Shown one piece after another: positions 3,558 to 56,452 of a DNA stretch of 64,000 nt. Position 1 is the first letter of the stretch. Every line of letters starts with the position of its first letter. The DNA comes from a virus. The translations under genes and the position numbers were made by a program. Below the pieces are notes generated by a model. The model had not been told where the DNA came from. It did no database searches and saw nothing but the letters and a program-made list of their open reading frames with translations. The DNA is taken from the IMG/VR virus record IMGVR_UViG_3300047550_006118, positions 4,536-68,535 of that record; one strand, written 5' to 3'.

Positions 3558-6500
3558 GTGGCCAGGAGTTCTGTTCAAATGTATCTCAATCATCTTGAAT
3601 CATCAAAAGAGGCCAGATTATACCAGATACTTCATACGCTAAAAAGCGTCCATGGAGTGCAGATGAACATCAATCTGGATTCAACCTCAACCGAGGATTT
3701 CCTCAACGAATGCAAATCGGCATGGGAGATCAAGAGGGATCGGATCATAGCCGAGAGCAATTTCAACAGCTATCAGCAGAATCCTGAATACATCAAGAGC
3801 ATGCTAATCCTTGAAGCCGTCAGGCTCATGCTCACGGAGATCGGACCAAAGCGCCGGCGCCGCAAGCAAATGGCCGAATCAACACTCGCAACCACGGAAG
3901 CAGACATGAACCAAGGACCAACCAACAAATTTGCCGATGATCTGGGCAAGATCGCTGAACGGATACCACAGACCAGCGAAGAAGCAACGATGTTTTCGAT
4001 AGTTCTGGCGGCCATCGCAAGAAAGGCCCAGAAGGTTGGCGCGCTTTTTGGTACGCAGGCAAAGGACTTTGACGACGACGAAAAGGCCGTGTTGGCATGG
4101 ATAAAGGGATTGCCGAGACCCATCAATGTTAATAGCATGATACAGGACGGTATCGCGAAATTTGGACCAGAATTGCTTGCCAAGAGGAAGGCCACCCTTG
4201 CCGCACAGCCAAAGATAGATCTCGGCAAGGATGACATGGAAGAGGCAGACATGAACCAAGGACCAACCAACAAATTTGCCGATGATCTGGGCAAGATTGC
4301 CGAACGGATCCCCCAGACCAGCGAAGAAGCAACGATGTTTTCAATTGTTCTAGCGTCCATCGCACGAAAGGCCCAGAAGATCGGCACGCTTTTTGGTACG
4401 CAGGCGAAGGATTTTGATGACGACGAAAAGGCCGTTCTGTCATGGATCAAGGGACTGCCGAGGCCCATCAATGTTAACAGCATGGTTCGCGACGGTATCG
4501 CGAAATTCGGACCAGAATTGCTTGCCAAGAGAAAGACCTCCCTTGCCGCACAACCGAAGATAGATCTCGGCAAGGATGACATGGAAGAGGACAAGGACCA
4601 GGACGGCGACGGTGACGAGGATTTCGCCGACGTGATGGTGGCAAGGATGACGGCAAGCGGCATGCCGAAGGGCGCCGCGATCGCCAAGACCAAGGGGAAG
4701 CCCTATAACAAGGAATCGATCTCCGAGGATGCCGATCCCGATTCACACCAGCCGCAGCCGGCACCAGCGGCCGTTAGCCCGGTCGTCGGCCAGGCACACC
4801 ATTACGAGTACCAGGCCAGCATGGCACGCAGCGAGCTTTATCGAAACAGCAAGTATGCAATGAGCATGCTAAAGCAGATCGATCCAAAGGGCGAAGTTGA
4901 GCCATGGATAGCGGGAGCGCTGACCAAGTCTGCTAACCTGCTGGATAAGGTATACCACTATCTGGATTATTACAAGAAGTTTGAACCGCAGGAGCTGCCG
5001 GAGGGCGACGAGGAGGAAGGCCTGGGCGAGACCAGCGGAGGTGTTACCCGCCAGAATCTCATGCTGATAATGGAATATTCCATCAAGCTCTTCGATATGA
5101 TCAAGCCAGGAGACAAGCTGGAAGGCTGGGTAGCCATGAAGCTAACCACCGCCAGCGAATGCGTCAGCTCCTGCAAGCATTACATGGACTACGTGCAGTT
5201 TGAGCACCATGCGATGGACAATCATTTCAGCGAAGGTAGGCGTGCAAAGAGGAAGATCACCAACGAGACCGCATACGAGCGAGATCTCGATGAAAAGAAG
5301 CCGGTCTATGCGGAATACCTGCATGGCGTCAAGAGCACCCCGAGGAAAAAGAAGTTCAGGAACTACGCCGAATACGAAAAGTGGATCGATGCTGAGGGGG
5401 ATAACGTGGAAGTCCAGAGGGTGTACAACGAATCGCGCAGCCTGATGGAGCAGGAAGATCTCGCCAAGGCCGCGACGATACTTTCCGCCAAGGACATGAG
5501 CGGCCAGATTCAGGACATAGCCGAGGACGTTGCCAAGATGAGCGTCGAGGACCTCATGCCTCTGGTTGACATGATGAGGAGCCAGTTTGGATCCGAAGCC
5601 GCCGACGGATTCAACACCACGGTTAAGACCGCCTTGGATGCCCTGTTGGATCTTTCCTCCAAGACCAAGGAGACCTTGGACAAGGCGATCGAAACCCTGA
5701 ACAGCGGCGGTGTTCCGGCTGAAACAACCGACATAGAGACCGCCGGCGAGGAACCGGAACCGAGCGCCGAGGCAGAGCCTGCCGATGATAGCGATATTTC
5801 CAAGGATCTAGCCGCCCTCGGCGGTGAGGAAGGATCTGCCGAGGAAGAGCCGGAGGCCGGAGCCGGAGAACCTCTTGGCCGTGCCAAGAAGTCGGAGGTG
5901 GCTGAATCCCTTGCAGTCGGCAAGAAGGTTAATGTTACCAATCCAAAGGCAACGCCTCGTTATGAGATCGTTAAGATCGACGGGGATAAGGTCACCCTCA
6001 AGAAGCCGGATGGTAGCGAGATGACGCTTCCAAAGGGTCGCATAATTCGTGCGAATCCCGGCCTAAGCGAGGGAAAGATTCCTGATGCCTTCAAGAAGAA
6101 CATCGAAAAGATGAAGGCCAAGGCCAAGGACAAGAAGGCCGACGACACCAAGAAGGAAGAGGTCGACGAGGCCTGGGATGCCGAGATGAAGACGGCAAAG
6201 AAGGATGTTGGCAAGTGGAAAGGCTGGACCATTAAGAAGCTCGAGGCGCGCAAGAGCGAGCTAATGTCCAAGAAAAAGAGAAACGCTGCTGAGCAAAAAG
6301 AAGTTGATCAAATCAACTTCGCCATCCGTGCCAAGCAGAAGGACAAGTGGGGTAAGATCAAGGAAGATACCGTGAATGAGGCCTCGAAGGCCGATCAGGA
6401 CATCGAAAAGGCAAAGGACGAATTCTTCAAGAAAGGCGGAATGGTTACACATGGCCCTACCAAGATTGCTAAAGGATCAAAATACCATCGTCCTGGAACC

Positions 6501-7196
6501 GGACATGTTGGCCGAACCGGATCGGCATCCGCTGATGCTCCGGGAATAATGAGGTCCTCAATGAAGGAAGACGAGGTCGCGGAAAAGGCTCCGCCAGGTA
6601 AAAAGGCCGAGGATTTCATAAAGGGAAACAAGGAATCGTTCAAGAAGAGATATGGCGATAGGTGGGAAGAAGTCCTATACGCTACCGCATGGAAGAAGTT
6701 CGGAAAGCACACCGAAAGCTACCAGCAAGCTAGCCAATCTCTGGCAGAAGCCAGGGCAGATCTAGAAAATCTAGAAAAGGCACTGGCCGATCATCGTGCT
6801 GAATTCAAGAGAATGCTAGCCGAAGGCAATGTGTCTGATCCATTGAACATGGGATATGGTCTCGAGGGAGATTCAATCCTGGATCAAATGGCAGGTGTCA
6901 ATCGCAGGATCACTTCTGCCAAGGAAAGCATGAAGAGGATCGTGCAGGAAGGCGTGATGGGCATGCTACGGGATATCGAGTCATTGAACAAGGCTAGGTC
7001 CCTGGAAACCATGAAGGATCTAACCCCGTACGGAGTGATCTATACCACGCCTGGTGGACGCAAGAGCAAGAAGATGTTTGAAAACGCTGATGCCCGCGCA
7101 TACTGGCTGGAACTGAAGAGCGATTCCATCAAGGATCCTCGCATGATCGAACCGGAGACCTTTGACAAGGCCATAACCAGAACCAAGAAAGGATAA
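3558..7196 (+). CDS. large acidic/helical late protein, possible prohead core/scaffold or inner-body protein
   Basis: 1212 aa, late promoter, E/K-rich modular sequence with a 115-aa tandem duplication. Confidence 0.6.
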   Translation: MARSSVQMYLNHLESSKEARLYQILHTLKSVHGVQMNINLDSTSTEDFLNECKSAWEIKRDRIIAESNFNSYQQNPEYIKSMLILEAVRLMLTEIGPKRRRRKQMAESTLATTEADMNQGPTNKFADDLGKIAERIPQTSEEATMFSIVLAAIARKAQKVGALFGTQAKDFDDDEKAVLAWIKGLPRPINVNSMIQDGIAKFGPELLAKRKATLAAQPKIDLGKDDMEEADMNQGPTNKFADDLGKIAERIPQTSEEATMFSIVLASIARKAQKIGTLFGTQAKDFDDDEKAVLSWIKGLPRPINVNSMVRDGIAKFGPELLAKRKTSLAAQPKIDLGKDDMEEDKDQDGDGDEDFADVMVARMTASGMPKGAAIAKTKGKPYNKESISEDADPDSHQPQPAPAAVSPVVGQAHHYEYQASMARSELYRNSKYAMSMLKQIDPKGEVEPWIAGALTKSANLLDKVYHYLDYYKKFEPQELPEGDEEEGLGETSGGVTRQNLMLIMEYSIKLFDMIKPGDKLEGWVAMKLTTASECVSSCKHYMDYVQFEHHAMDNHFSEGRRAKRKITNETAYERDLDEKKPVYAEYLHGVKSTPRKKKFRNYAEYEKWIDAEGDNVEVQRVYNESRSLMEQEDLAKAATILSAKDMSGQIQDIAEDVAKMSVEDLMPLVDMMRSQFGSEAADGFNTTVKTALDALLDLSSKTKETLDKAIETLNSGGVPAETTDIETAGEEPEPSAEAEPADDSDISKDLAALGGEEGSAEEEPEAGAGEPLGRAKKSEVAESLAVGKKVNVTNPKATPRYEIVKIDGDKVTLKKPDGSEMTLPKGRIIRANPGLSEGKIPDAFKKNIEKMKAKAKDKKADDTKKEEVDEAWDAEMKTAKKDVGKWKGWTIKKLEARKSELMSKKKRNAAEQKEVDQINFAIRAKQKDKWGKIKEDTVNEASKADQDIEKAKDEFFKKGGMVTHGPTKIAKGSKYHRPGTGHVGRTGSASADAPGIMRSSMKEDEVAEKAPPGKKAEDFIKGNKESFKKRYGDRWEEVLYATAWKKFGKHTESYQQASQSLAEARADLENLEKALADHRAEFKRMLAEGNVSDPLNMGYGLEGDSILDQMAGVNRRITSAKESMKRIVQEGVMGMLRDIESLNKARSLETMKDLTPYGVIYTTPGGRKSKKMFENADARAYWLELKSDSIKDPRMIEPETFDKAITRTKKG
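3900..4589 (+). repeat. two tandem ~345-bp direct repeats inside the CDS
   Basis: GCAGACATGAACCAAGGACC...GATGACATGGAAGAG at 3900-4244 and 4245-4589; differences mostly synonymous. Confidence 0.95.
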
Positions 7197-23384: not shown

Positions 23385-23469
23385 CGCCGATCAACGGCAG
23401 GGTTGTGGGATCCTAAAACATGCCAACCCTGCCGTTGACATAAATGAAAATCTAACGCATAAATATCTT

Positions 23470-23765
23470 GTTACCGTTGATAACGGCCAAATAGACCAGG
23501 CAGGACCGCGGGGCAGTACCGCGCCGCTCCACCAGTAAGAACACTCGGACAGACACAGCCCCTTAAAACGGGGAAGCATGGTGGTGATGACGATGTCTAC
23601 ATCATGGGGCGGAAGCAGGATCGACTGATGGTGTCAAGGGACGGAGTAGGTATCGGTGCGCAAGCTACCTTAACGCAAGAAACACCATAAATGCCAACGA
23701 CAACGTTGCATTTGAGGAAGTGCGCCTAGCGGCGTAACCCCATTGGGCATGAGGAAGGCCTAGAA
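23470..23765 (+). ncRNA. ssrA: two-piece (circularly permuted) tmRNA, alphaproteobacterial type
   Basis: Acceptor piece ends CCGCTCC-ACCA at 23534. Coding piece starts GGGGCGG at 23606, pairing with a G3.U70 wobble. Resume codon at 23693 gives tag ANDNVAFEEVRLAA*. Outer ends are approximate. Confidence 0.93.
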
Positions 23766-23771
23766 ACAGAA

Positions 23772-23802
23772 GGGGCAGGAGAAATCCTGCCCCATCCTTT
23801 TA
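23772..23802 (+). terminator. intrinsic terminator after tmRNA
   Basis: GGGGCAGGA-GAAA-TCCTGCCCC hairpin followed by a T-rich tract. Confidence 0.75.
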
Positions 23803-23880
23803 TTTGACCTCCGGTGTGCGTCTTGCGCAAAATGATCTTGGACCAATGATGGTCCTACACACAACACACAGGAGAGTAAA

Positions 23881-30039: not shown

Positions 30040-31017
30040 ATGGAGAACGACATGGATCTCATGGATGCCAGAAATGTTTCTGCCCTGCTGAACGGCAAGA
30101 CCGATTGCTTGCTCGGTGTCAGCGGAGGCATAGACAGCATGGTCATGCTACATTGGATTGCACAAAATCGAAGCAAGCTTCCGGCTCGGATCCGTGCCAT
30201 GCATGTTGATCATGGCATCAATCCAAGCAGCGGAGAGTGGGCAATGCACGTGGCACGAGCATGCTCGGTTCTGGATATCCCTTGCGAGGTCAAGAAGGTC
30301 GACCTGGAAGGCCTGGGAAACAATCTCGAATACGCCGCGAGGCGGGCGCGATACAAGGCTTTCTGCGAAAGCGGGGCAGACGCGCTGATGCTGGCCCACC
30401 ATGCCAACGACCAGTGCGAGAGTTTCCTCCTCAAGCTTTTCAGGGGCAGTGGTGTCAAGGGCCTCAAGGCCATGGGCATGAGTTCTCCCTGCTGGTATGA
30501 CGATTCCGTGGCTTTGCTACGCCCGATGCTAAACGTTACCAGGGGGCAGATCGAAGCATGGGCCGAGATACACGGCATCACCGGCATCGAGGATCCGTCC
30601 AACGTCGACGATCGATACGATCGCAACTACATCCGCAATCGCGTGTGGCCGGTGATCCAGGACAGGTTTGACATCGCCGACATCAACACCATCCGCAGCA
30701 TCCAGCATCTGGGTGAGGCATGGGAGCTGACCACCATGCTGGCGGATCAGGACATCGTGTCGGTAACCATGGAGGATGGTAGCCTGGAATGGACGAAGCT
30801 GCGTGATCTGGGCTATCTCCGCATCAAGAACGTCATCCTGCGCATCCTCGACAGGGAAGGCGTTTACGGATTCAGCATCAATCACGTCGAGCAGTTCGCA
30901 AACGGGCTCATCGACGCTGATTATGACAGCCGCAACGAGCTGAGCCTCAAGGGTTTCACCATGAACAAGATCGGCAAGCGGATACATGTCTCAACGATCC
31001 AGCGACGAGCTGCCTGA
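30040..31017 (+). CDS. tilS: tRNA(Ile)-lysidine synthetase
   Basis: SGGIDS PP-loop, HVDHG, ARRARY, AHHANDQCE, RPML and EDPSN...RNYIR. Confidence 0.93.
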   Translation: MENDMDLMDARNVSALLNGKTDCLLGVSGGIDSMVMLHWIAQNRSKLPARIRAMHVDHGINPSSGEWAMHVARACSVLDIPCEVKKVDLEGLGNNLEYAARRARYKAFCESGADALMLAHHANDQCESFLLKLFRGSGVKGLKAMGMSSPCWYDDSVALLRPMLNVTRGQIEAWAEIHGITGIEDPSNVDDRYDRNYIRNRVWPVIQDRFDIADINTIRSIQHLGEAWELTTMLADQDIVSVTMEDGSLEWTKLRDLGYLRIKNVILRILDREGVYGFSINHVEQFANGLIDADYDSRNELSLKGFTMNKIGKRIHVSTIQRRAA

Positions 31018-32900: not shown

Positions 32901-33614
32901 ATGAAAAAGCTAGTAGTGCTAACCGGTGCCGGCCTGAGCGCACCAAGCGGTATCTCAACCTTCCGTGATAAAAACGGATTGTGGGCGAACCATGACATCG
33001 ATCAGGTCTGCAACGCGCTCACCTGGAGGCAAAACCGCGAGGCGGTGCATCGTTTTTACAACATGCTCCGCGCCGGCCTGGAGGATGCTCAGCCGAATGC
33101 CGGCCATCACATGATCTCCGGATGGAAGCGAGACTACGGGGAGAACTGCGTGGTCCTCACCCAGAACGTGGATGATCTTTTCGAGCGATCCGGCTGCACG
33201 GACGTCGTGCATCTCCATGGATATCTCCAGGACATGAAATGCCTTGCCTGCGGACACACATGGAACATCGGATACGCTAAGTGGGACCACGAATCCGACC
33301 GATGCCCGGGATGCAACAGCTTCCGTGGTGTGAAGCCCGGCGTGGTGTTCTTCAACGACAGCGCTCCTAGATATGCCGACCTATACCGTGCGTTCAAGAA
33401 GCTGACCTCGGACGACACCGTGGTGATCATCGGTACCAGCGGCCAGGTCATCAACGTGGACGCCCTGGTGTTCGATACCAGGGCCTTCACGATCCTAAAC
33501 AACATGGAGCCGAGCTCCAGCATAAACAACGAGTATTTCAACCGAGTGTTCTACGCATCCGTCGAGGATGCTGCCGAGGAGATCGATCGGTTGGTCAGGG
33601 AAAGGATGGCCTAA
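32901..33614 (+). CDS. cobB: Sir2/CobB NAD-dependent protein deacylase
   Basis: GAGLSAPSGISTFR, TQNVDDL, HLHG, Zn CxxC...CxxC and IGTSG. Confidence 0.93.
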   Translation: MKKLVVLTGAGLSAPSGISTFRDKNGLWANHDIDQVCNALTWRQNREAVHRFYNMLRAGLEDAQPNAGHHMISGWKRDYGENCVVLTQNVDDLFERSGCTDVVHLHGYLQDMKCLACGHTWNIGYAKWDHESDRCPGCNSFRGVKPGVVFFNDSAPRYADLYRAFKKLTSDDTVVIIGTSGQVINVDALVFDTRAFTILNNMEPSSSINNEYFNRVFYASVEDAAEEIDRLVRERMA

Positions 33615-34283: not shown

Positions 34284-34312
34284 TTGACGCGAAGCGTTGC
34301 TTGCGGCATATT
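34284..34312 (+). promoter_or_regulatory. sigma70-type promoter for the first ncRNA cluster
   Basis: TTGACG-N17-CATATT. Confidence 0.6.
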
Positions 34313-34320
34313 ACGTGCAA

Positions 34321-34373
34321 GGGGAGCATGCAGCAAACAAAAATTGCTTTTGATGCAAAACCAAAGCCTTCCC
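34321..34373 (+). ncRNA. handle RNA module 1 (anticodon-arm-like cargo)
   Basis: GGGGAG/CTTCCC terminal stem, TGCAGCAAAC motif, AAG before the 3' strand; internal TTGC-TTTTGAT-GCAA hairpin. Confidence 0.6.
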
Positions 34374-34395
34374 GCTTTGTTCTTTGAAACCCACA

Positions 34396-34437
34396 GGGGT
34401 CGGTGCAGCAACACCTTAAACATGGCAAGCTGACCTC
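34396..34437 (+). ncRNA. handle RNA module 2 (minimal)
   Basis: GGGGTCGG/CTGACCTC 8-bp stem, TGCAGCAAC, AAG. Confidence 0.65.
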
Positions 34438-34505
34438 GGTCAGCAAAACCAGGAGCCCAGCCTGGCTAAACAAGGGCACAACGTTCCCGAGGGTGGATTG
34501 ATAAT

Positions 34506-34744
34506 GGATGGGTACAGCGACTACATTAATGACCCGGTCACGAAGGGGTCCTAGGCCCCCTAGTAACCACGGCTGCCTGGGCTTAGCCAGGATCGGGCTT
34601 GCACGACGCAGGATATTGCTGGTAGAAACCAGCTAGGGCAGGAGGCGGTACCACGTCGGTAACTGGATTTTGGATCTAGCTCTGGGCGATGTGGGGTAGA
34701 CAACCTGCCAGAAAGAACATTAAAAAGCGATCCGCAAACCATCC
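34506..34744 (+). ncRNA. handle RNA module 3 with ~220-nt structured cargo
   Basis: GGATGG/CCATCC stem, TACAGCGAC motif, several internal hairpins; no credible ORF; terminator follows. Confidence 0.6.
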
Positions 34745-34750
34745 TGTTAG

Positions 34751-34787
34751 GAAAAGGCATGCATCGGCCGATGCATGCCTTTTTCCA
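34751..34787 (+). terminator. intrinsic terminator
   Basis: AAAAGGCATGCATCG...CGATGCATGCCTTTT inverted repeat. Confidence 0.8.
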
Positions 34788-34801
34788 TTAAATACACCAT
34801 C

Positions 34802-35233
34802 ATGAACATGCGCGAAATAATCAACCTCCTGGAAAAATCGACATACGAGCGAGGAGGTAAGATAGGAAGATGGGCGTTCCTTTACATGGAACCAAATGAC
34901 CCGTCGACCAAGGATTTTGCACAGTGCGGGACCTGCCAGCTATTCATGCCCGGCAAGGAGAGATGTGGCATATTCGGCAAGGACGACGTGGTCAAGGCTG
35001 AGGCCAGCTGCGGCCTTTATCTCCAGGGACAGCCACACGATGATCAGCCGATACAGGGCATCGTCACACCGGAGGAGTCCGGATACGTGGAAGCCAAGGT
35101 TCGTTGCGAGAACTGCGGATGGTTCAAGGACGGAAACTGTGGGTTGTTTGCCATGCTCGATGAACGCCTCCCGGACACCTTCGATCTAAAAAGCAAGGTA
35201 TCCGCGACCGGTTGCTGCAACGCCTGGAACTGA
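34802..35233 (+). CDS. Cys-rich late protein with two HiPIP-like repeats
   Basis: CGTCQLF...C...SCGLY and CENCGWF...C...GCCNAW; late promoter at 34788; MREIINLLE N-terminus. Confidence 0.65.
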   Translation: MNMREIINLLEKSTYERGGKIGRWAFLYMEPNDPSTKDFAQCGTCQLFMPGKERCGIFGKDDVVKAEASCGLYLQGQPHDDQPIQGIVTPEESGYVEAKVRCENCGWFKDGNCGLFAMLDERLPDTFDLKSKVSATGCCNAWN

Positions 35234-35305
35234 TCAAGCATCCTGCATATAGACACGGGCATCTCCGATCATTAAATTTTCATGTAAAGGTATTGGAGAG
35301 ATTTA

Positions 35306-35950
35306 ATGTCCGGTTTGTTGGTTTCACTATATGACGATGCATATTCCGAGCTGGGAGAAATCACCTGGCATCAGAACAAGATGAAATACGCGGAGAGATG
35401 GGGATTGGATGCCGTCGTCAAGACGCGCAACTTCCACCGGGTCCCACACCTCGGTTTCGCCAAGATAGCATTGATGCTCGAGGTGGCCGAGAGGCGCGTG
35501 CATGATTGGCTTTTCTGGTCCGGTGCGGACACCTTCATCACCAACTTCAACGTACCGCTGACGGATTTCCTCTATCCGGGAAAGACCCTCACCATAGCCC
35601 ACGATGCGTCATTCCTCCAATCGGACAGTTTCGTGATCCGCAACAACGCGATCGGACGCGGATACCTCGCCAGGATCATGGAAGCCATGCCCAGGTACCT
35701 CCCATGGAGCCACGAGCAGCAGGCGATGATAGATCTCGAGGACGAGTATCGGGAGCATACCCAATACGTGCCACAGAGATTCCTCAATGCCTATGCATAC
35801 GAGGAGCTCGAGATACCAGAGGGTCCTTACGATACCTTTGGCTATAACGGCAGCTGGCGGAAGGGAGATTTCCTGGTACACATCAACAAGATGCCCTATC
35901 CAACGAGGGTAGCAAAGGCCAGGGAATATCTAGAAAAAACGGTCTATTAG
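35306..35950 (+). CDS. glycosyltransferase family 34-like (GMA12/MNN10)
   Basis: NKMKYAERWG, FAKI, WSGADTFITN, EQQAM and GDFLVH. Confidence 0.75.
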   Translation: MSGLLVSLYDDAYSELGEITWHQNKMKYAERWGLDAVVKTRNFHRVPHLGFAKIALMLEVAERRVHDWLFWSGADTFITNFNVPLTDFLYPGKTLTIAHDASFLQSDSFVIRNNAIGRGYLARIMEAMPRYLPWSHEQQAMIDLEDEYREHTQYVPQRFLNAYAYEELEIPEGPYDTFGYNGSWRKGDFLVHINKMPYPTRVAKAREYLEKTVY

Positions 35951-35954
35951 GCCG

Positions 35955-35983
35955 TTGACAGCGCGGCAAAAACAGCGTAACAT
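35955..35983 (+). promoter_or_regulatory. sigma70-type promoter for module 4
   Basis: TTGACA-N17-TAACAT. Confidence 0.75.
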
Positions 35984-35991
35984 GCGCTTGA

Positions 35992-36108
35992 AGGATCAGT
36001 TCAGCAACCAAAAATCAACCAACGGGTCGTGGGTTCGAGTCCCACCCGTTCCGCCAAATATGGGACGGTAGCTCAGTCGGTAGAGCAGATGGCGAAAAAG
36101 TTGATCCT
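35992..36108 (+). ncRNA. handle RNA module 4: circularly permuted tRNA-like RNA (Y-RNA/YrlA-like topology)
   Basis: AGGATCAG/TTGATCCT stem plus TTCAGCAAC. The T-arm (36029-36045) precedes the acceptor stem, which is closed by a GCCA-AATAT loop; the D-arm GCTCAGTCGGTAGAGC follows. Confidence 0.85.
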
Positions 36109-36123
36109 GTCTTGATTTAGGCG

Positions 36124-36152
36124 TTGACAGAAAACGAGAGATAGTCTAACAT
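36124..36152 (+). promoter_or_regulatory. sigma70-type promoter for modules 5-7 and the DUF2828-type gene
   Basis: TTGACA-N17-TAACAT. Confidence 0.75.
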
Positions 36153-36160
36153 ACGAGCAT

Positions 36161-36290
36161 TGGATCAGTTCAGCATACAATGGAATGTAAAATCGCCGGG
36201 AAACCTACGTTGGTGCAAGTCCAACCCCTCCCACCAATTGCGGGCAGGGTAGCCAAGCAGCAAAGGCAGCGATCCACAAAAGTTGATCCA
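36161..36290 (+). ncRNA. handle RNA module 5: circularly permuted tRNA-Tyr-derived RNA
   Basis: TGGATCAG/TTGATCCA stem plus TTCAGCATAC. Order inside: TGTAAA-ATCGC, variable arm, T-arm GTTGG-TGCAAGT-CCAAC, CCCTCCC-ACCA, linker, GGGCAGGG, D-arm, GCGAT. Confidence 0.85.
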
Positions 36291-36306
36291 GGCTAAATGA
36301 GTTAAA

Positions 36307-36392
36307 AGAATCGATTCAGCAGCTACTTAGGATGAAGCGAGGCCGCCAAAAGCGGCTTTGTGAGGATGGTTCAAATCCACCAAGTCGATTCT
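36307..36392 (+). ncRNA. handle RNA module 6
   Basis: Perfect AGAATCGA/TCGATTCT stem, TTCAGCAGC, AAG; internal GCCGC-CAAAA-GCGGC hairpin and T-loop-like TGG-TTCAAAT-CCA. Confidence 0.75.
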
Positions 36393-36403
36393 GATACAAA
36401 CAA

Positions 36404-36455
36404 AGGTTGGGTTCAGCAACCCAAAGCAATCCAAAACTGCAAACAAGTCCAACCT
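36404..36455 (+). ncRNA. handle RNA module 7 (leader of the DUF2828-type gene)
   Basis: AGGTTGGG/TCCAACCT stem, TTCAGCAAC, AAG; ends 19 nt before the ATG. Confidence 0.75.
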
Positions 36456-36474: not shown

Positions 36475-37890
36475 ATGACCACTTTCGCACAAGCAGCCCA
36501 GAACACCATGCAGCCGGGCTTTACCGCCAACGGCATGGTCACCAACCAGAGCAGCCTTGATCCAAACGTGGATCTGTTCTTCGCCATCGGCGCCAGCCGC
36601 GGCAAGGATCTCACCGGCGCCTTTGCCCGTGCCTATGCGGCCGAGCCCCACGTGGCCATGAAGATCCTCTTCTGGGCACGCGACGCCCGTGCCGGTGCCG
36701 GAGAGCGTGAAATCTTCCGCCAGATCATCCGCAACCTCGAGGTCAACCAGCCGGAGAGCCTCATGCGCAACCTTGCGCTGGTTCCGGAGTATGGTCGTTG
36801 GGACGATCTCCTGGTGTTCCGGACCCCGCAATTCAAGATGGCCGCATACGACCTCATCGCCCGTGCCCTGCGCGCCGGCAATGGCCTGGCTGCCAAGTGG
36901 ATGCCCCGCAAGGGCCCGGTCGCCAACGATCTGCGCAAGTACCTGAACTTCAACCCGAAGCAGTACCGGCGCATGATCGTCGACCTGACCAAGGTCGTGG
37001 AGACGCAGATGTGCGCCAAGGAGTGGGATCAGATCAACTACGATCACGTTCCGAGCGTGGCTGCCAACCGCTACCAGAAGGCCTTCAACAAGCGCGATGC
37101 CACCCGTTACGCGGCGTGGAAGGAGGGCCTGAAGAACGGCACCAGCAAGGTCAACGCCAGCGTTCTGTACCCCTACGACGTGCTCAAGGCCGTCGATCAC
37201 GGCGACCGTGAGGTTGCGCTGGCGCAGTGGGAGGCCCTGCCGAACTACCTCGGTGACAACGCCATACTCCCGATGGTGGACGTCAGCGGCAGCATGACCT
37301 GCCAGGTGGGCGGACAGAAGGGCGTGGAGCTGACCTGCATGCAGGTGGCCATCAGCCTGGGGCTCTACATCGCGGACAAGCAGCAGGGTTCCTTCAAGGA
37401 CATGTGGCTCACTTTCACCAACGACAGCCACATCGATGTCCTCAAGGGCGATCTGCTTGCCAAGATCAACCAGGTGCGTCGCAACGTTGGATACGACACC
37501 AACATCGAGAGCGCGTTCCGCAGCATCCTTGGGGTGGCCGTGCAGAACAACCTCCCGGCGAGCGAGATGCCCAAGTACCTCGTTGTGCTGACGGATCTCG
37601 AGTTCAACCCGGCATTTATGGGCGGAAAGTCCGTCGGTGCGTTTGAGCTGGCCACCAAGATGTTCGAGGCAGCCGGATATGAATGCCCGAAGCTGGTGTG
37701 GTGGAACCTCAATGCGCGCCCAGATGCTACCGGCAATGCACCGGTACGATTCGACCAGAATGGTACCGCACTTGTGTCTGGGTTCTCTCCGTCGATGATG
37801 AAGAGCATCCTGGCGGCGAAGAACTTCTCTCCGCGGGACGTTATGCTCGAGACGGTGATGTCCGAAAGGTATCAGGCGGTTTCAGCCTGA
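36475..37890 (+). CDS. DUF2828-type protein: helical N-domain plus vWA (Ro60/TROVE-like architecture)
   Basis: [39 protein letters not shown] and LYPYD; MIDAS motif DVSGSM; VLTD; WNL; VSGFSP. Confidence 0.85.
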
Positions 37891-39041: not shown

Positions 39042-39129
39042 ACATACCGGTAGACAAGCACGAGAAACGTGCTATAGTGCATGGGTGCTAGCAGTGATGC
39101 CGGCGCCCATTTTTTTTTGGACATGTGAC

Positions 39130-40152
39130 ATGCACAAGCTTCTCACCAGGGACCAGTTCAGGGAAGACGTGTTTGCCCGCGATCGCAATCTCTGCGTGAT
39201 CTGCGGTGCTACCGCGCAGGACGCCCACCACATCATAGAACGCAGGCTGTGGCCCGACGGCGGTTATTATCTGGCCAACGGTGCGTCCGTCTGCGGCCCC
39301 TGCCACCTTCGCTGCGAAAGCACCGAGATCTCGGTGGACGATGTCAGGCAGGCCGCCGGCATCACCAAGCCCGTGATCCCTCCGCACCTCTACCACGACG
39401 TCTCCTATGACAAGTGGGGCAACATCATCCTCGCCGACGGGCGGCGGCTGCGCGGCGAACTGTTCAATGACGCTAGCGTGCAGAAGGTGATCGCACCGGT
39501 GCTGCACCTGTTCACCGACCGCGTGAAGTATCCACGCACCCATCACCTGCCCTGGAGCCCAGGCATCACCGAGGATGATCGCGTGCTGCACGACATGTCG
39601 GTGTTCGAGGGCCGGCGCGTGATCGTCACGGAAAAGATGGATGGCGAGAACACCACCTGGTACAGGGACGGTACGCATGCCCGCAGCGTTGACGGACGGG
39701 GCCATCCCAGCCGTGACTGGTGCAAGAACCTTTGGGCAACCATCTCCGGTGAGATACCTGAGGGATGGCGCATCTGCGGCGAGAATCTCTATGCCAAGCA
39801 CTCGATCCGCTACGACGACCTTCCTACCTACTTCATGGGATTCTCCATCTGGAACGACAGGAACGAATGCCTTGGCTGGGATGACACCGTAGAGTGGTTC
39901 CAACTATTGGGAATAACATCAGTGCCGGTGATATACGACGGCATCTACGATGAAAACGCCATTAGATCACTGTATGATGTGCGGCGTGACTGGGAAACCA
40001 GGGAAGGTTACGTGCTGCGCACAGCAGACGGGTTCTCCTACGGGGATTTCAGGCGCTGCGTTGCCAAGTTCGTGAGACCAAACCACGTGGCGACCACCAA
40101 GCACTGGATGTTCGGACGCACCAACATCGAGACCAACGGGATGCGGAAATGA
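39130..40152 (+). CDS. HNH domain fused to an ATP-dependent RNA ligase domain
   Basis: N-terminal CVICG..AQDAHH...NGASVCGPCH; C-terminal KYPRT.HLPWS, TEKMDGEN (motif I), GEN, EGYVLR and AKFVR. Confidence 0.85.
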   Translation: MHKLLTRDQFREDVFARDRNLCVICGATAQDAHHIIERRLWPDGGYYLANGASVCGPCHLRCESTEISVDDVRQAAGITKPVIPPHLYHDVSYDKWGNIILADGRRLRGELFNDASVQKVIAPVLHLFTDRVKYPRTHHLPWSPGITEDDRVLHDMSVFEGRRVIVTEKMDGENTTWYRDGTHARSVDGRGHPSRDWCKNLWATISGEIPEGWRICGENLYAKHSIRYDDLPTYFMGFSIWNDRNECLGWDDTVEWFQLLGITSVPVIYDGIYDENAIRSLYDVRRDWETREGYVLRTADGFSYGDFRRCVAKFVRPNHVATTKHWMFGRTNIETNGMRK

Positions 40153-41553: not shown

Positions 41554-41940
41554 CTATCGTTTCTTGGTCCTGCGAAGGATGATGCGATATGATCCGAAAT
41601 CCCCCGTTGAATCCATTATCGGCCGGCAGGATGATACCAATCCGGTTAGCTCGCACCAGCTTGGCAATTCCGACCTGATGTTTCCTCGCCGACCGGTTAT
41701 TATGACGAGGGATCTCGTACCGATACCATGGTGCTTTTCCAGGAAATACCTGGTAGCCCGGTATGCGGCATCCAAGGTCAATCCATGGAGATCCAGACCT
41801 CTACTGGTAGCACCATGCTTGGGAATCGCCGGTCTGGATGCCGGGATTGCGGGCAGGGATACCAGCCCCTTGGTGTATCGATCCCAGAGGTCGAGGTCTT
41901 CCTTGGTCAGGCCTCGATTTTCTTTCCTGTTTCCATGCAT
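41554..41940 (-). CDS. stand-alone Smr-domain endonuclease
   Basis: EDLDLW N-terminus; LDLHGLTLDAAY, IITGRRG and GSYRIILRR. Confidence 0.85.
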   Translation of the reverse strand: MHGNRKENRGLTKEDLDLWDRYTKGLVSLPAIPASRPAIPKHGATSRGLDLHGLTLDAAYRATRYFLEKHHGIGTRSLVIITGRRGNIRSELPSWCELTGLVSSCRPIMDSTGDFGSYRIILRRTKKR

Positions 41941-41991
41941 GGGTTCGTTATAAGTATCGTATCATGCATAGGTCAACCGAAGAGGATAATC

Positions 41992-42441
41992 GTGGCCCAT
42001 TACATCAGCACAAAGACATTCGACCATAACGACGGTCTGTATTGCTCGTATCGGAAATGGAATTCCAAGACCGATAAGAAATTCATCCATGGCCATTTGC
42101 TACAGATCAAGATGGTATTTTCATGCGTCGATCTGTCCGAGGACGGACAGGTGCTTGATCTTGATGATCTGGGAGAAATACGATCGTGGATCAAGGACAT
42201 TTTTGGACACACCATTTGCATCGCCCTTGATGACCCGTATCGTGACGTGTTCTCACATCTGGAAACCGCCCGGCTGGCCAAGATACGTTACCTGGATGGG
42301 GTTGGATGCGAGAACTTTGCCCGGATAATATGGTACAAGATCGATAAGTGGCTGGAAGAAACCGAGCGCAAGCCGCGTGTCTTCATCCGAACGGTGGAGG
42401 TGATCGAAAGCCCGGGGCACAGCGGTTTCTACATCGGCTGA
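41992..42441 (+). CDS. 6-pyruvoyl-tetrahydropterin synthase / QueD-like protein
   Basis: YISTKTF, IHGH, FGHT...DDP, GCENFA and VEVIE; GTG start. Confidence 0.75.
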   Translation: MAHYISTKTFDHNDGLYCSYRKWNSKTDKKFIHGHLLQIKMVFSCVDLSEDGQVLDLDDLGEIRSWIKDIFGHTICIALDDPYRDVFSHLETARLAKIRYLDGVGCENFARIIWYKIDKWLEETERKPRVFIRTVEVIESPGHSGFYIG

Positions 42442-43241: not shown

Positions 43242-43301
43242 TCCCGATTGACCGATGATGGCATTCATGCTAAAATGCATGGAACCAATCGGAGAACCGC
43301 G

Positions 43302-44132
43302 ATGAGATTCCTCTTAATGTCTGACGTCCATGTTGATATGTCCCACTGGGACTGGTCGTGCCTCGATGGCGTGCCGTCGGACGTCAACGTGGCCGTGGTT
43401 GCTGGAGACGTCAGCAACGATGTGTGGCAGACCAGCCGCTGGCTGGTTGACCTCAAGAAGAGGTTTGATACCGTCGTCTGGGTCGCCGGGAACCATGATT
43501 TTTACAACATCGGGTTCCACCAGACCAGGTTATATGACCCGGAATGGTCAAAGGCCTGGCCATATCCGTCCGACGTGGCGGAGATGTATGGCCACTACCA
43601 ACGATGGAGCGATGCCAACGGTATCACGTTCCTCCATCGTCGCGCTGAGCTGATCAACGGGGTTAGGTTCATCGGTGCCACCGGATGGCATGATTTCCGG
43701 GGAGGTGAACCATACAGCACCGAGGACCAGATCAAGGTCTGGTACGACTGCCTCAATGACACCCGCATCAACTGGCAAAAGGGTCTCCTGCAACCGGACC
43801 ATCTCAAGCCGATGGATGCCGGGCTGCGTGACTGGGAGGCGATCAGCAATCTGGTCCGCGGTTCCAGCGAACCGATGGTGGTGATCACCCATCACATACC
43901 ACATCGTCGCTTCCTGTGGCAAAAACCACATGATCGGATATGGACCATGCTGCATGGCAGCTTCGTCAACACCAGGATGGAAAGCATCGTCGATCCAAAC
44001 ATCAAGTATTGGCTCTACGGGCATACCCACCAACGAGGGATGATGGACATCGGCAGCACGACCTACGTGTGCAATGCCAAGGGTTACCAGGGCGAAAACC
44101 CAAGATGGGAACCGCTGATCCTCGAGGTGTAA
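43302..44132 (+). CDS. calcineurin-like metallophosphoesterase
   Basis: SDVH, AGD, GNHD, THH and GHTH motifs. Confidence 0.92.
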   Translation: MRFLLMSDVHVDMSHWDWSCLDGVPSDVNVAVVAGDVSNDVWQTSRWLVDLKKRFDTVVWVAGNHDFYNIGFHQTRLYDPEWSKAWPYPSDVAEMYGHYQRWSDANGITFLHRRAELINGVRFIGATGWHDFRGGEPYSTEDQIKVWYDCLNDTRINWQKGLLQPDHLKPMDAGLRDWEAISNLVRGSSEPMVVITHHIPHRRFLWQKPHDRIWTMLHGSFVNTRMESIVDPNIKYWLYGHTHQRGMMDIGSTTYVCNAKGYQGENPRWEPLILEV

Positions 44133-55599: not shown

Positions 55600-56452
55600 T
55601 TCTTTGAAAAATGAAAATTGGGGGCATGGCCCCATTAGGATAAGCCAGGTAACTGGCCCAAAGCTGGAAATCCTACGTACCAGCGTCACGCAAGTGATCC
55701 GTCCATGCAAGCTCGAGCCTGCCCGAAAGGGCCCATCACTAGAGGTGGTGGATATTCCGAAGGCTGGGCTGGGGTCCGAAAGGACGGGTGCAGAGCCGAT
55801 CGGTGAGCACCAAAGGAGCCGCAACTCCTGCCCCGGCACGCAACCCAGTCCAAGATGAATGGCTAACGGGTAGTCCGGTCAGTCCGAGGTTCGCAGCCGA
55901 GGGCAACGGGCAATGTGATGGGTATCGGGCCGAGAGGCACGCTATCCGGAAACGTGGTCGAGTACCTCGCAAGGGGAATGACATGAGGTGTGTTGTATTG
56001 GGTCGGTGGAAACACTGATTCAGCAACAGGGGCAGCACATCTTGGTAGGTTTGCAATGTAGCTCATTGGTAGAGCATCTGTCTCCAAAACAGACTGTAGT
56101 TGGTTCAAATCCAACCATAGGAAAAAGCAAAGACTGCCCCGGTTACGTGTGTAAGGCGTCAAATGCCATGCCCGCAAGGGAACATGGTCCAGCTGAGCCC
56201 GCAAGGCAAGGTTGGTTCATCGCAGATGATTCGTAGAGGCTTAGCGGCTTCGAACTACCCGCAAGGTAGGCGGATAGGAAACGGTGGAGTAGCACGTAGT
56301 GACGGACCAAATGCCAGGTCCCTAAACAAGGCGACGCTGTTGGTGGACTTGATGACCGCAAGGCATCAGGTGGATAACGGGAGAAGGCCGCCCGCAAGGT
56401 GGTTGATAATGCCCAAGGCACTGACACAGGAACTGTAATCTCAGGTTTCTAC
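55600..56452 (+). ncRNA. large structured ncRNA, GOLLD-like
   Basis: ~850 nt with no credible ORF between promoter and terminator; many GNRA hairpins (six CGCAAG-loop copies, GGAAAC, CGAAAG); embedded tRNA-like element. The family name is inferred from size, architecture and context. Confidence 0.7.
56052..56123 (+). tRNA. tRNA-Trp(CCA)-like element with a mismatched acceptor stem, inside the large ncRNA
   Basis: D-arm GCTCATTGGTAGAGC; anticodon arm TCTGT-CTCCAAA-ACAGA; T-arm GTTGG-TTCAAAT-CCAAC; acceptor TGCAATG/CATAGGA has 2 mismatches and no encoded CCA. Confidence 0.7.

Follow-up and report, generated by a model that had tools for sequence, protein, structure and literature searches.

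Candidate anticodon-arm mimics in Y-RNA-like modules beside a phage gene for a Ro60-like protein

The known Y RNAs tether the protein Ro60 to partners such as PNPase (as described in PMC4201824 and PMC12135203), and they are known as mimics of the top half of a transfer RNA (tRNA) that, on the published view, have no anticodon loop; YrlA, in the account given in 10.1101/312249, copies the T, D and acceptor regions of tRNA and "lacks the anticodon loop". We report here on a 64,000 nt stretch of viral DNA (positions 4,536 to 68,535 of IMG/VR record IMGVR_UViG_3300047550_006118, called the window below) in which positions 34321-36455 contain two intergenic stretches with repeated units, or modules, on the + strand, the same strand as open reading frame (ORF) 36475-37890, which encodes a Ro60-like protein. 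Each module is a terminal stem, the handle, that encloses a cargo; large modules have tRNA-like cargos, and minimal modules have no acceptor, D or T arm and are not chargeable L-shaped tRNAs. An earlier inspection of the letters alone (the sequence-only reading) proposed that some of these cargos display anticodon loops, perhaps as decoys for host anticodon nucleases. Our comparison of related loci indicates that anticodon-arm mimicry on these Y-RNA-like RNAs is real.

The handle and the protein encoded beside it

The handle is a 9-bp stem made from the 5' and 3' ends of the module and bounded by an internal loop, in which CAGCAA on the 5' strand lies opposite an A-rich 3' strand. It is seen most clearly in four units of the window (Modules 4 to 7 in Table 1), in each of which CAGCA comes after a 9-nt 5' strand and, farther downstream, the complementary 9-nt strand comes after an A-rich run; the stem changes between these units compensate (GGATCA/TGATCC, GAATCG/CGATTC and GGTTGG/CCAACC). 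For comparison we assembled 105 IMG/VR loci (of roughly 570 stretches) that code protein relatives at 44-86% identity, individual loci being cited below by L numbers. The handle stems of 25 minimal modules from related loci are 90.6% paired, 6 of the 9 pairs vary in both partners, and covariation is scored at 0.553, compared with 0.170 ± 0.027 when shuffled and at most 0.149 with slid partners; pair 7 is mostly a mismatch. A pattern scan of the 105 loci and the window that was blind to the cargo found modules 151 times on the gene strand and 26 times on the opposite one, with cargo lengths in two groups, 24-52 and 65-140 nt, and a covariance model (R1) with the handle stem as its sole structure gave 129 matches at E ≤ 1 in 93 sources, all 129 of them on the gene strand. 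The modules of the window lie 21-2150 nt upstream of ORF 36475-37890. Looser searches of the window were much less informative: a stem-plus-CAGCA scan was indifferent to strand (50 and 37 matches), so that stricter rules were required, and searches for YDCAGCAWAC and TKCAGCA gave scarcely more matches than chance.

The 703 phage records with relatives of ORF 36475-37890 range from Felix-O1-like coliphages to mycobacteriophages and annotate these relatives as "Ro-like RNA binding protein". A profile search of the Protein Data Bank sequences with this ORF gave 0 matches, NCBIfam gave none, and Pfam gave DUF2828 and DUF7788 only, with no TROVE match. The link to Ro60 comes solely from the fold search, as follows: an AlphaFold model built on 13 homologues (predicted local distance difference test score, pLDDT, 79.7) was submitted to Foldseek, and ranks 1-13 are all Ro60/TROVE (E 1.7e-10 to 1.2e-6, template modeling score about 0.5), followed by von Willebrand factor A (vWA) domains, with the Ro60 of Thermus phage phiLo (9kop and 9l5y) as the best match. 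The predicted fold thus supports a HEAT-repeat ring with a vWA domain, the Ro60 fold, and on this model the Ro-like identity proposed by the sequence-only reading has support. Residues D269, S271 and S273 are invariant among the 13 homologues; they form a DxSxS-type motif similar to a MIDAS (metal ion-dependent adhesion site), which we take to be the MIDAS motif of the vWA domain.

The handle motif CAGCAA is similar to, though not identical with, the published GNCGAA and CGAA motifs. Directly after the Ro-like gene of Mycobacterium phage Nicholas lies a full-length match to YrlA (37.9 bits, below the gathering score of 69), and its CAGGAA is aligned to the gCgaA motif of the YrlA model; because of this alignment we regard the handle as the probable counterpart of the Ro60-binding stem and motif. 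By analogy, it would correspond to the stem and motif to which Chen et al. 2014 and the phiLo study assign Ro60 binding, and the Ro60-like ring protein is presumed to be the handle binder.

Anticodon-arm form and its relation to tRNA

Do the cargos of the minimal modules resemble anticodon arms more often than chance would give? A cargo was scored as fitting if its stem is 4 bp or longer and its loop has 7 nt, the second of them U and the sixth a purine, and as strict if the loop reads Y-U-NNN-R-A. The cargo-blind scan gave 44 unique minimal modules, of which 29 combine a stem of 4 bp or more with a 7-nt loop (shuffles give 8.2 ± 2.5), 23 have U2 and R6 as well (shuffles 1.29 ± 1.07, with a maximum of 5 in 2000), and counting 9-nt loops of the same inner pattern raises the number to 31. 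The sequence-only reading had suggested looking for anticodon-loop grammar in the cargo loops of homologous modules, and the enrichment there is strong; its caution that the matches could be chance holds within the window alone but not across the homologous modules, where the excess over chance appears. Natural hairpins give the same picture. When the background is taken as 858 other hairpins of these loci whose stems are A/T-rich, U2 and R6 are present in 15 of 19 distinct 5-bp/7-nt module hairpins and in 155 of the 858 (p 2e-8), the strict pattern in 9 of 19 and 25 of 858, and a loop identical to a real tRNA anticodon loop in 9 of 19 and 24 of 858 (2.8%). The real loops used as reference are the 104 distinct anticodon-loop 7-mers of 685 tRNA genes in the loci; the ARAGORN count of 0 tRNAs in L040-L044 is unreliable.

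The covariance model extends these counts. Its set contains 95 unique minimal modules, 46 of which fit, and 57 modules that the first scan had missed include 24 that fit (shuffles 2.0 ± 1.4, with a maximum of 7 in 1000); 16 of those 24 loops equal real tRNA loops (shuffles 0.16). A 5-bp/7-nt hairpin occurs in 44 of the 95, the loop length of the 5-bp hairpins peaking at 7 nt (45) and then at 9 nt (22), and the 36 distinct 5-bp/7-nt hairpins of this set include 29 with U2 and R6, 19 that are strict and 20 that equal real loops. Information along loop positions 1-7 of the 36 hairpins is 0.58, 1.11, 0.37, 0.17, 0.37, 1.51 and 1.06 bits, and this is the profile of the real anticodon loops in the loci, where U33 is present in 678, R37 in 679 and A38 in 550 of the 685 tRNAs. 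Where stems are identical (21 loop pairs), the differences at positions 1-7 number 10, 7, 17, 11, 15, 2 and 6, and at least 21 different triplets are found overall.

Several kinds of irregular loop were also seen. One subfamily of minimal modules has 9-nt loops of the sequence A(A/C)GCATATC with G at the U33 site; L008:3921-3973, L002:1060-1115 and the L087/L091/L097 group are among the minimal modules with irregular 8-nt or 9-nt loops; and some 8-nt loops amount to a real 7-nt anticodon loop plus one C (C+CTTGAAA, C+CTGTAAA). The loops were considered as -35 promoter boxes (TTGAAA, TTGTAA) and rejected as such by eye, there being no -10-like hexamer at the proper spacing and CTCATAA and CTGCTAA being unfit.

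The large modules point to a source for the hairpin. Some are permuted tRNAs, in which a hairpin is followed by 4-5 nt, a T arm, a closed acceptor stem and a D arm, the junction with the handle falling between positions 26 and 27; in others the handle encloses a tRNA body that has no acceptor, with loops CTTCTAA or CTTTTAA. An anticodon-type hairpin ends 2-8 nt before the T stem in 12 of the 21 unique large modules with a T arm, and 8 of those 12 loops equal real tRNA loops; the loop CTTGTAA is common to tRNA-like large modules and minimal modules. Judged by these sequence comparisons, the large modules appear to show the origin of the hairpin, since the tRNA-like forms are linked to the minimal ones by intermediates. 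Four handle-enclosed tRNA-like bodies (Table 1) have loops CTTTTAA (Lys UUU) or CTTCTAA (Arg UCU), and ARAGORN calls a tRNA in one handle module only (L019). The idea that the arms are recent copies of the phage's own tRNAs was rejected: a same-triplet tRNA is present in the part of the locus covered at only 5 of 23 modules, and 6-10 of 17 positions differ. Only the L002 minimal arm comes close to a real one, with 1 mismatch in 17 to a tRNA-Lys(CUU) arm (L064).

The modules are found well outside the closest relatives of the window. Phage Nicholas carries, after its YrlA-like RNA, a minimal module, TTTCA-CTGCTAA-TGAAA (L107:3686-3739; 34.7 bits, E 2.4e-6), and its mycobacteriophage Ro-like protein is 32% identical. 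Listeria, Campylobacter and Staphylococcus phage loci give weak matches only to the handle model (15-21 bits), the module signal of Listeria phage LMSP-25 being one such weak case. Escherichia phage vB_EcoM-VpaE1 (L106) has at least 4 handle modules (GACCnnnTT/A-CAGCAA...GGTC) at 5714-6654, directly after the Ro-like gene in unannotated gaps of a tRNA array, one of them with permuted tRNA-like cargo. Cronobacter phage S13 (L110) has an oversize "tRNA-Ser" (121 nt) and "tRNA-OTHER" (113 nt) at 5896-6138, just downstream of its Ro-like gene, with TTCAGCA in an insertion at the anticodon-arm position and an otherwise normal tRNA frame with a CCA end; these look like Y-like RNAs in an unpermuted arrangement that were annotated as tRNAs.

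How do the modules of the window itself compare? The sequence strings quoted in the sequence-only reading are all present in the window, and its comparison of Module 1 with a tRNA-Gln(UUG) anticodon loop stands: in the cargo TTGC-TTTTGAT-GCAA (34344-34358) a 4-bp stem closes a 7-nt loop whose second letter is U and whose sixth is A, and the loop 7-mer is that of 3 of the 13 tRNA-Gln(UUG) genes in related loci. The Module 1 orthologues have the loops TTTGTAC (L040/L041) and TTTCGGT (L042-L044), the three loops agreeing in their first three letters, U2 included, and in having a purine at position 6, and handle, linkers and stem are kept; the divergent handle of Module 1 is supported because it differs from that of L040 by a compensatory double change, G-C to A-T. 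The T-loop hairpin noted in Module 6 (GGATGG-TTCAAAT-CCACC, 36364-36381) is likewise found, and is conserved in L040 and L042. The other three comparisons fail. Module 7 had been likened to a Trp(CCA) anticodon arm, but its cargo, GCA-ATCCAAAAC-TGC, has a 3-bp stem and a 9-nt loop, its orthologues have different loops (TTTATCA, TTCATAT), and the TCCAAAAC that it shares (36430) with the tRNA-Trp of the window (56083) is not significant (3 occurrences and 1.64 expected). The supposed Tyr loop TGTAAA of Module 5 (36186-36191) is a single-stranded linker that reads GGTAAA in L040, and the supposed Leu loop CTTAAAC of Module 2 (34415-34421) has no stem. Module 2 is itself doubtful, having no cargo hairpin and flanks that are uncompensated in L040, and with an R1 score of only 5.7 bits (E 2.5) it was rejected as a handle module. 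The cargo of Module 4 has a T arm, a closed acceptor stem and a D arm but no anticodon hairpin, and matches Rfam YrlA (RF02553) at 36.0 bits (E 1.3e-5) over model positions 25-83 only, which does not reach the gathering score of 69; the minimal modules gave no match to RF02553.

Explanations of the modules

The explanation that we favor, and consider reasonably probable, is that the modules are Y-RNA-like RNAs of the phage Ro60-like protein, with a tRNA-derived distal cargo and an anticodon stem-loop displayed on the ring. It starts from the covarying handle, the Ro60 fold, the anticodon-arm form in excess of chance and the link to the tRNA-like modules, and from these we infer binding by the protein, a partner and a benefit to the phage. 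As the stem and CGAA motif of the YrlA/Yrl RNAs suggest by analogy, the handle would dock on the ring protein of the neighboring gene, and the cargo would be a piece of tRNA, namely a permuted tRNA body in the large modules and only an anticodon-arm derivative in the minimal ones (5-bp stem, 7-nt loop, positions 32, 33, 37 and 38 conserved, triplet variable), so that the particle would present a bare anticodon stem-loop on a protein ring. Because YrlA has no anticodon loop and the minimal modules supply that missing end, they would present it to proteins that read the loop; the most likely job is engagement of such readers (nucleases, modification enzymes, synthetases), which would be soaked up by, or tethered to, the Ro-like particle. 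Since 19 of the 44 minimal modules sit in the 5' leader of the gene, the protein may in addition regulate its own synthesis through these copies, a parallel and non-exclusive role.

A number of points weigh against this explanation. Within the window only Module 1 fits the anticodon form, and with a 4-bp stem; 21 of the 44 and 49 of the 95 minimal modules do not fit, many of them having 6-, 8- or 9-nt loops, and one subfamily has G in place of U33. The module hairpins, rich in A and U, have little stability (-0.4 to -2.3 kcal/mol), for several of them ViennaRNA gives no structure, and U2 and A6 could pair with one another to give a triloop instead. The modules are interrelated, so the counts above are not independent draws and overstate independence, and the loop consensus clusters around CUUGAAA. 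The cargo columns of the covariance model favor seed-like cargo, and its "out-of-sample" set is not fully unbiased. The handle has GCAA where the published motif has CGAA, the + strands of the Cronobacter S13, Sinorhizobium phiM12 and Vibrio K571 loci gave no match to the handle model at E ≤ 1, and the cargo loops of the Felixounavirus locus that was inspected do not seem anticodon-like.

Among the alternatives, a realistic though not probable one is that the leader copies are an autoregulatory operator, a site for the protein on its own messenger RNA (mRNA) leader that gives translation feedback, with the hairpin a spacer inherited from a tRNA-like ancestor. The 19 leader modules end 15-39 nt before the gene, a handle module ends at most 60 nt upstream in 27 of 103 loci by the strict pattern (and in many more by the model, at about 3920-3990), and Module 7, which adjoins the ribosome-binding site and stops 21 nt short of the ATG, lacks a separate promoter-like site. 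However, the other 25 minimal modules are found downstream or interspersed with tRNA genes, Module 1 is preceded by a promoter-like site of its own, and the anticodon-arm form is present in both classes (8 of the 19 near the gene and 15 of the 25 elsewhere), which a mere spacer leaves unexplained.

The decoy idea of the sequence-only reading is a sub-case of the explanation that we favor, and we entertain it only tentatively. It holds that the modules with an anticodon arm serve against host anticodon nucleases as decoys, sponges or baits: the ring would stabilize the RNA, the nuclease would bind or cut the mimic and spare the tRNA, and the nearby RNA ligase might reseal the product. Triplet turnover on conserved stems is fast, as in Module 1 and its orthologues (TTTTGAT/TTTGTAC/TTTCGGT, with Ro-like proteins 77-86% identical), but relaxed constraint would account for this too, and the triplets, at least 21, go far beyond the nuclease targets known to us. 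Some anticodon nucleases require base modifications, which the transcripts would lack. An RNA ligase is encoded 1.2 kb downstream, and in Listeria phage LMSP-25 an RtcB-type ligase is encoded near the Ro-like gene. The mimic copies the exact part read by such nucleases, AriB of PARIS being described in PMC11464382 as recognizing the anticodon stem-loop. In a knockout screen the Ro60-like gp130 of phage Bas63 counters the Ppl defense, although Ppl is not linked to tRNA in the portion of that account available to us (PMC11482910).

A wider form of this idea, which we put forward as speculation, is that the modules are exchangeable anticodon-arm cassettes, in which the handle is constant, U33, A37 and A38 are kept and the triplet is swapped, and which evolve as baits for anticodon readers, chiefly tRNA-cutting defense nucleases. 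If true, this would be an RNA-based counter-defense that extends from jumbo phages to mycobacteriophages and lies unannotated within phage tRNA clusters.

Position-specific conservation and the controls disfavor the two remaining explanations. That the handle alone matters, the hairpins being decaying remains of tRNA genes that were taken up between its strands, is unlikely: it accommodates the graded series from tRNA bodies in handles to bare hairpins, the irregular loops in about half of the modules and the free variation of Module 7 and its orthologues, but the 5-bp/7-nt form with U33, A37 and A38 is kept from proteobacterial jumbo phages to a mycobacteriophage in spite of the 32% protein identity, and the 1.1-1.5 bits at positions 2, 6 and 7 compared with 0.2-0.4 at positions 3-5 would be a selective retention not expected under decay. 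Chance resemblance in A/T-rich sequence is very improbable, for while the matches in the window are short, the shared TCCAAAAC is near its expected number and three of the five examples first cited fail, composition-matched shuffles reach at most 5 where 23 are observed and at most 7 where 24 are observed, background hairpins fit in 18% of cases and module hairpins in 79-81%, and exact real-tRNA loops make up 9 of 19 and 20 of 36 module hairpins against 24 of 858 in the background.

Genomic setting and comparison with known systems

The source IMG/VR record has 68,535 bases and is judged 15% complete, and DNA nearly identical to the window is found mainly in freshwater metagenomes. The contigs most closely related to the window, L040 and L041, are 170 kb and 453 kb long, so the window represents a fragment of a freshwater jumbo phage. 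Its features are listed in Table 1.

Table 1. Modules and other features of the window, with four tRNA-like bodies from related loci
Feature	Position	Strand	Remarks
Module 1 (A)	34321-34373	+	Divergent handle GGGGAG...CTTCCC, TGCAGCAAAC; R1 16.4 bits, E 0.0076
Module 2 (B)	34396-34437	+	Conserved hairpin GGTG-CAGCAA-CACC; R1 5.7 bits, E 2.5
Module 4 (D)	35993-36107	+	Handle (9/9 pairs) and YrlA-like permuted tRNA top half
Module 5 (E)	36162-36289	+	Handle and tRNA-like cargo
Module 6 (F)	36308-36391	+	Handle, GC-rich hairpin, T-arm hairpin; R1 18.3 bits, E 0.0027
Module 7 (G)	36405-36454	+	Minimal, in 5' leader, ends 21 nt before ATG; R1 44.1 bits (seed member)
Sigma-70-like promoter TTGACG-17-CATATT	34284-34312	+	Before Module 1
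Promoter-like site TTGACA-17-TAACAT	35955-35983	+	Before Module 4
Promoter-like site TTGACA-17-TAACAT	36124-36152	+	Before Module 5
Ro60-like ring protein with vWA domain (predicted fold), 471 aa	36475-37890	+	Pfam DUF2828 and DUF7788; PHROG 850 "RNA-binding protein"
HNH and RNA ligase ORF	39085-40152	+	RNA-repair context; 1.2 kb downstream of Ro60-like gene
PP-loop ATPase ORF	30040-31017	+	Pfam ATP_bind_3, E 3.4e-52
Sir2-family ORF	32901-33614
QueD/PTPS-like ORF	41728-42441
Calcineurin-like phosphoesterase ORF	43248-44132
Cys-rich ORF, 152 aa	34775-35233		Between the two module clusters; conserved in L040 (1384-1815)
Structured non-coding stretch, about 310 nt	34438-34783	+	After Modules 1-2; perfect 16-bp terminator hairpin 34752-34783 at end
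GOLLD RNA	55985-56447		181.8 bits; tRNA-Trp(CCA) gene 56051-56124 inside
Permuted (two-piece type) transfer-messenger RNA gene	23431-23828		ARAGORN tag peptide ANDNVAFEEVRLAA
Handle-enclosed tRNA-like bodies	L024:3038-3125; L018:326-423; L019:516-616; L020:1704-1799		D, anticodon and T arms; short or weak acceptor stem

The ORFs around the locus, together with the HNH-RNA ligase, resemble a tRNA-modification and RNA-repair neighborhood; we take the ATP_bind_3 family of ORF 30040-31017 to include the anticodon-modifying enzyme TilS. The Cys-rich ORF has no match in Pfam, NCBIfam or PHROGs. The stretch 34438-34783 is about 89% identical to L040/L041, matched no Rfam family and may be a further large structured RNA of the locus. 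Folding of each intergenic region as a whole gave z values of -3.19 and -1.20, which are uninformative on single modules. Beside the GOLLD RNA, TTCAGCA also occurs at 56019 and 56567.

A scan for promoter-like sites found 5 where 1.9 ± 1.4 are expected, and those at Modules 4, 5 and 1 end 8-10 nt before the module. Positions 34331-34736 and 36204-36444 are covered by contigs from RNA libraries (three studies, matching at 99% or more), which hints weakly at stable RNA, given that DNA carry-over in such libraries is possible; ORFs 34775-35950 are not covered by these contigs, which is no proof of absence.

The Y-RNA and phage Ro60 literature that we consulted contains no description of stand-alone anticodon-arm cargo that we could find, although the supplementary phage YrlA lists of Chen et al. 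2014 may include some of the loci. If such stand-alone mimics are real, phage Ro60-type particles can present either end of a tRNA, with a wider range of partners to recruit or trap: nucleases, anticodon-modifying enzymes and synthetases. This supplies a testable idea for the role of the Ro60-like genes in the 703 phage records, including the Felix-O1-like coliphages, whose Ro60-like gene is reported in PMC11482910 to counter a defense system; vB_EcoM-VpaE1 shares its genus with the phage of the knockout screen that ties the Ro60-like gene to counter-defense. The modules also account for unannotated gaps, and some oddly long "tRNA" annotations, in phage tRNA clusters.

How then do the modules compare with systems already described? 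The mRNA leader of E. coli thrS holds an operator that mimics an anticodon arm and is bound by the synthetase that it regulates. Like the leader modules, it is an anticodon-arm look-alike in a 5' leader close to the ribosome-binding site; unlike it, the modules precede a Ro60-like gene, and their conserved docking element is the handle and not the loop. The tRNA-Lys of phage T5 acts against PARIS in a similar sense, in that the sequence of the anticodon stem-loop of a phage RNA decides the outcome against an anticodon-directed nuclease, but as described in PMC11464382 it is a full, functional and cleavage-resistant tRNA that replaces the host tRNA, whereas the minimal modules, which have no acceptor, D or T arms, cannot decode. 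In Deinococcus radiodurans the Y RNA Yrn1 is modeled in PMC4201824 with a 5-bp stem in the anticodon-arm position; it differs from the modules in having a 6-nt loop and in being a single case within a larger tRNA-like fold, with no stand-alone cargo and no family of varying triplets in that description.

The closest protein counterpart is the Ro60 of Thermus phage phiLo, which is the best structural match to the window protein at about 15% sequence identity. As in the window, Y-RNA-like genes (in phiLo two, Yrl1 and Yrl2) lie just upstream and have a stem with a motif-bearing internal bulge (PMC12135203); the phiLo bulge is CGAA, its system recruits PNPase, and in the available text of that study the word "anticodon" occurs 0 times and no anticodon-like element is mentioned. 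The closest RNA counterparts are the bacterial and phage YrlA and YrlB RNAs of Ro60 (Rsr) (PMC4201824, RF02553), which, as presented there, are likewise encoded on the strand of a Ro60-type gene and no more than a few kb away, a locus often having several of them, and likewise have a terminal stem with a short purine-rich motif close to the 5' end, the distal domain being derived from tRNA. The modules differ from YrlA in their motif (CAGCAA in place of GNCGAA) and in their scores (36 and 37.9 bits against a gathering score of 69); moreover, their distal hairpin has the form of an anticodon arm with a variable triplet, and some large modules keep the anticodon arm beside the T arm.

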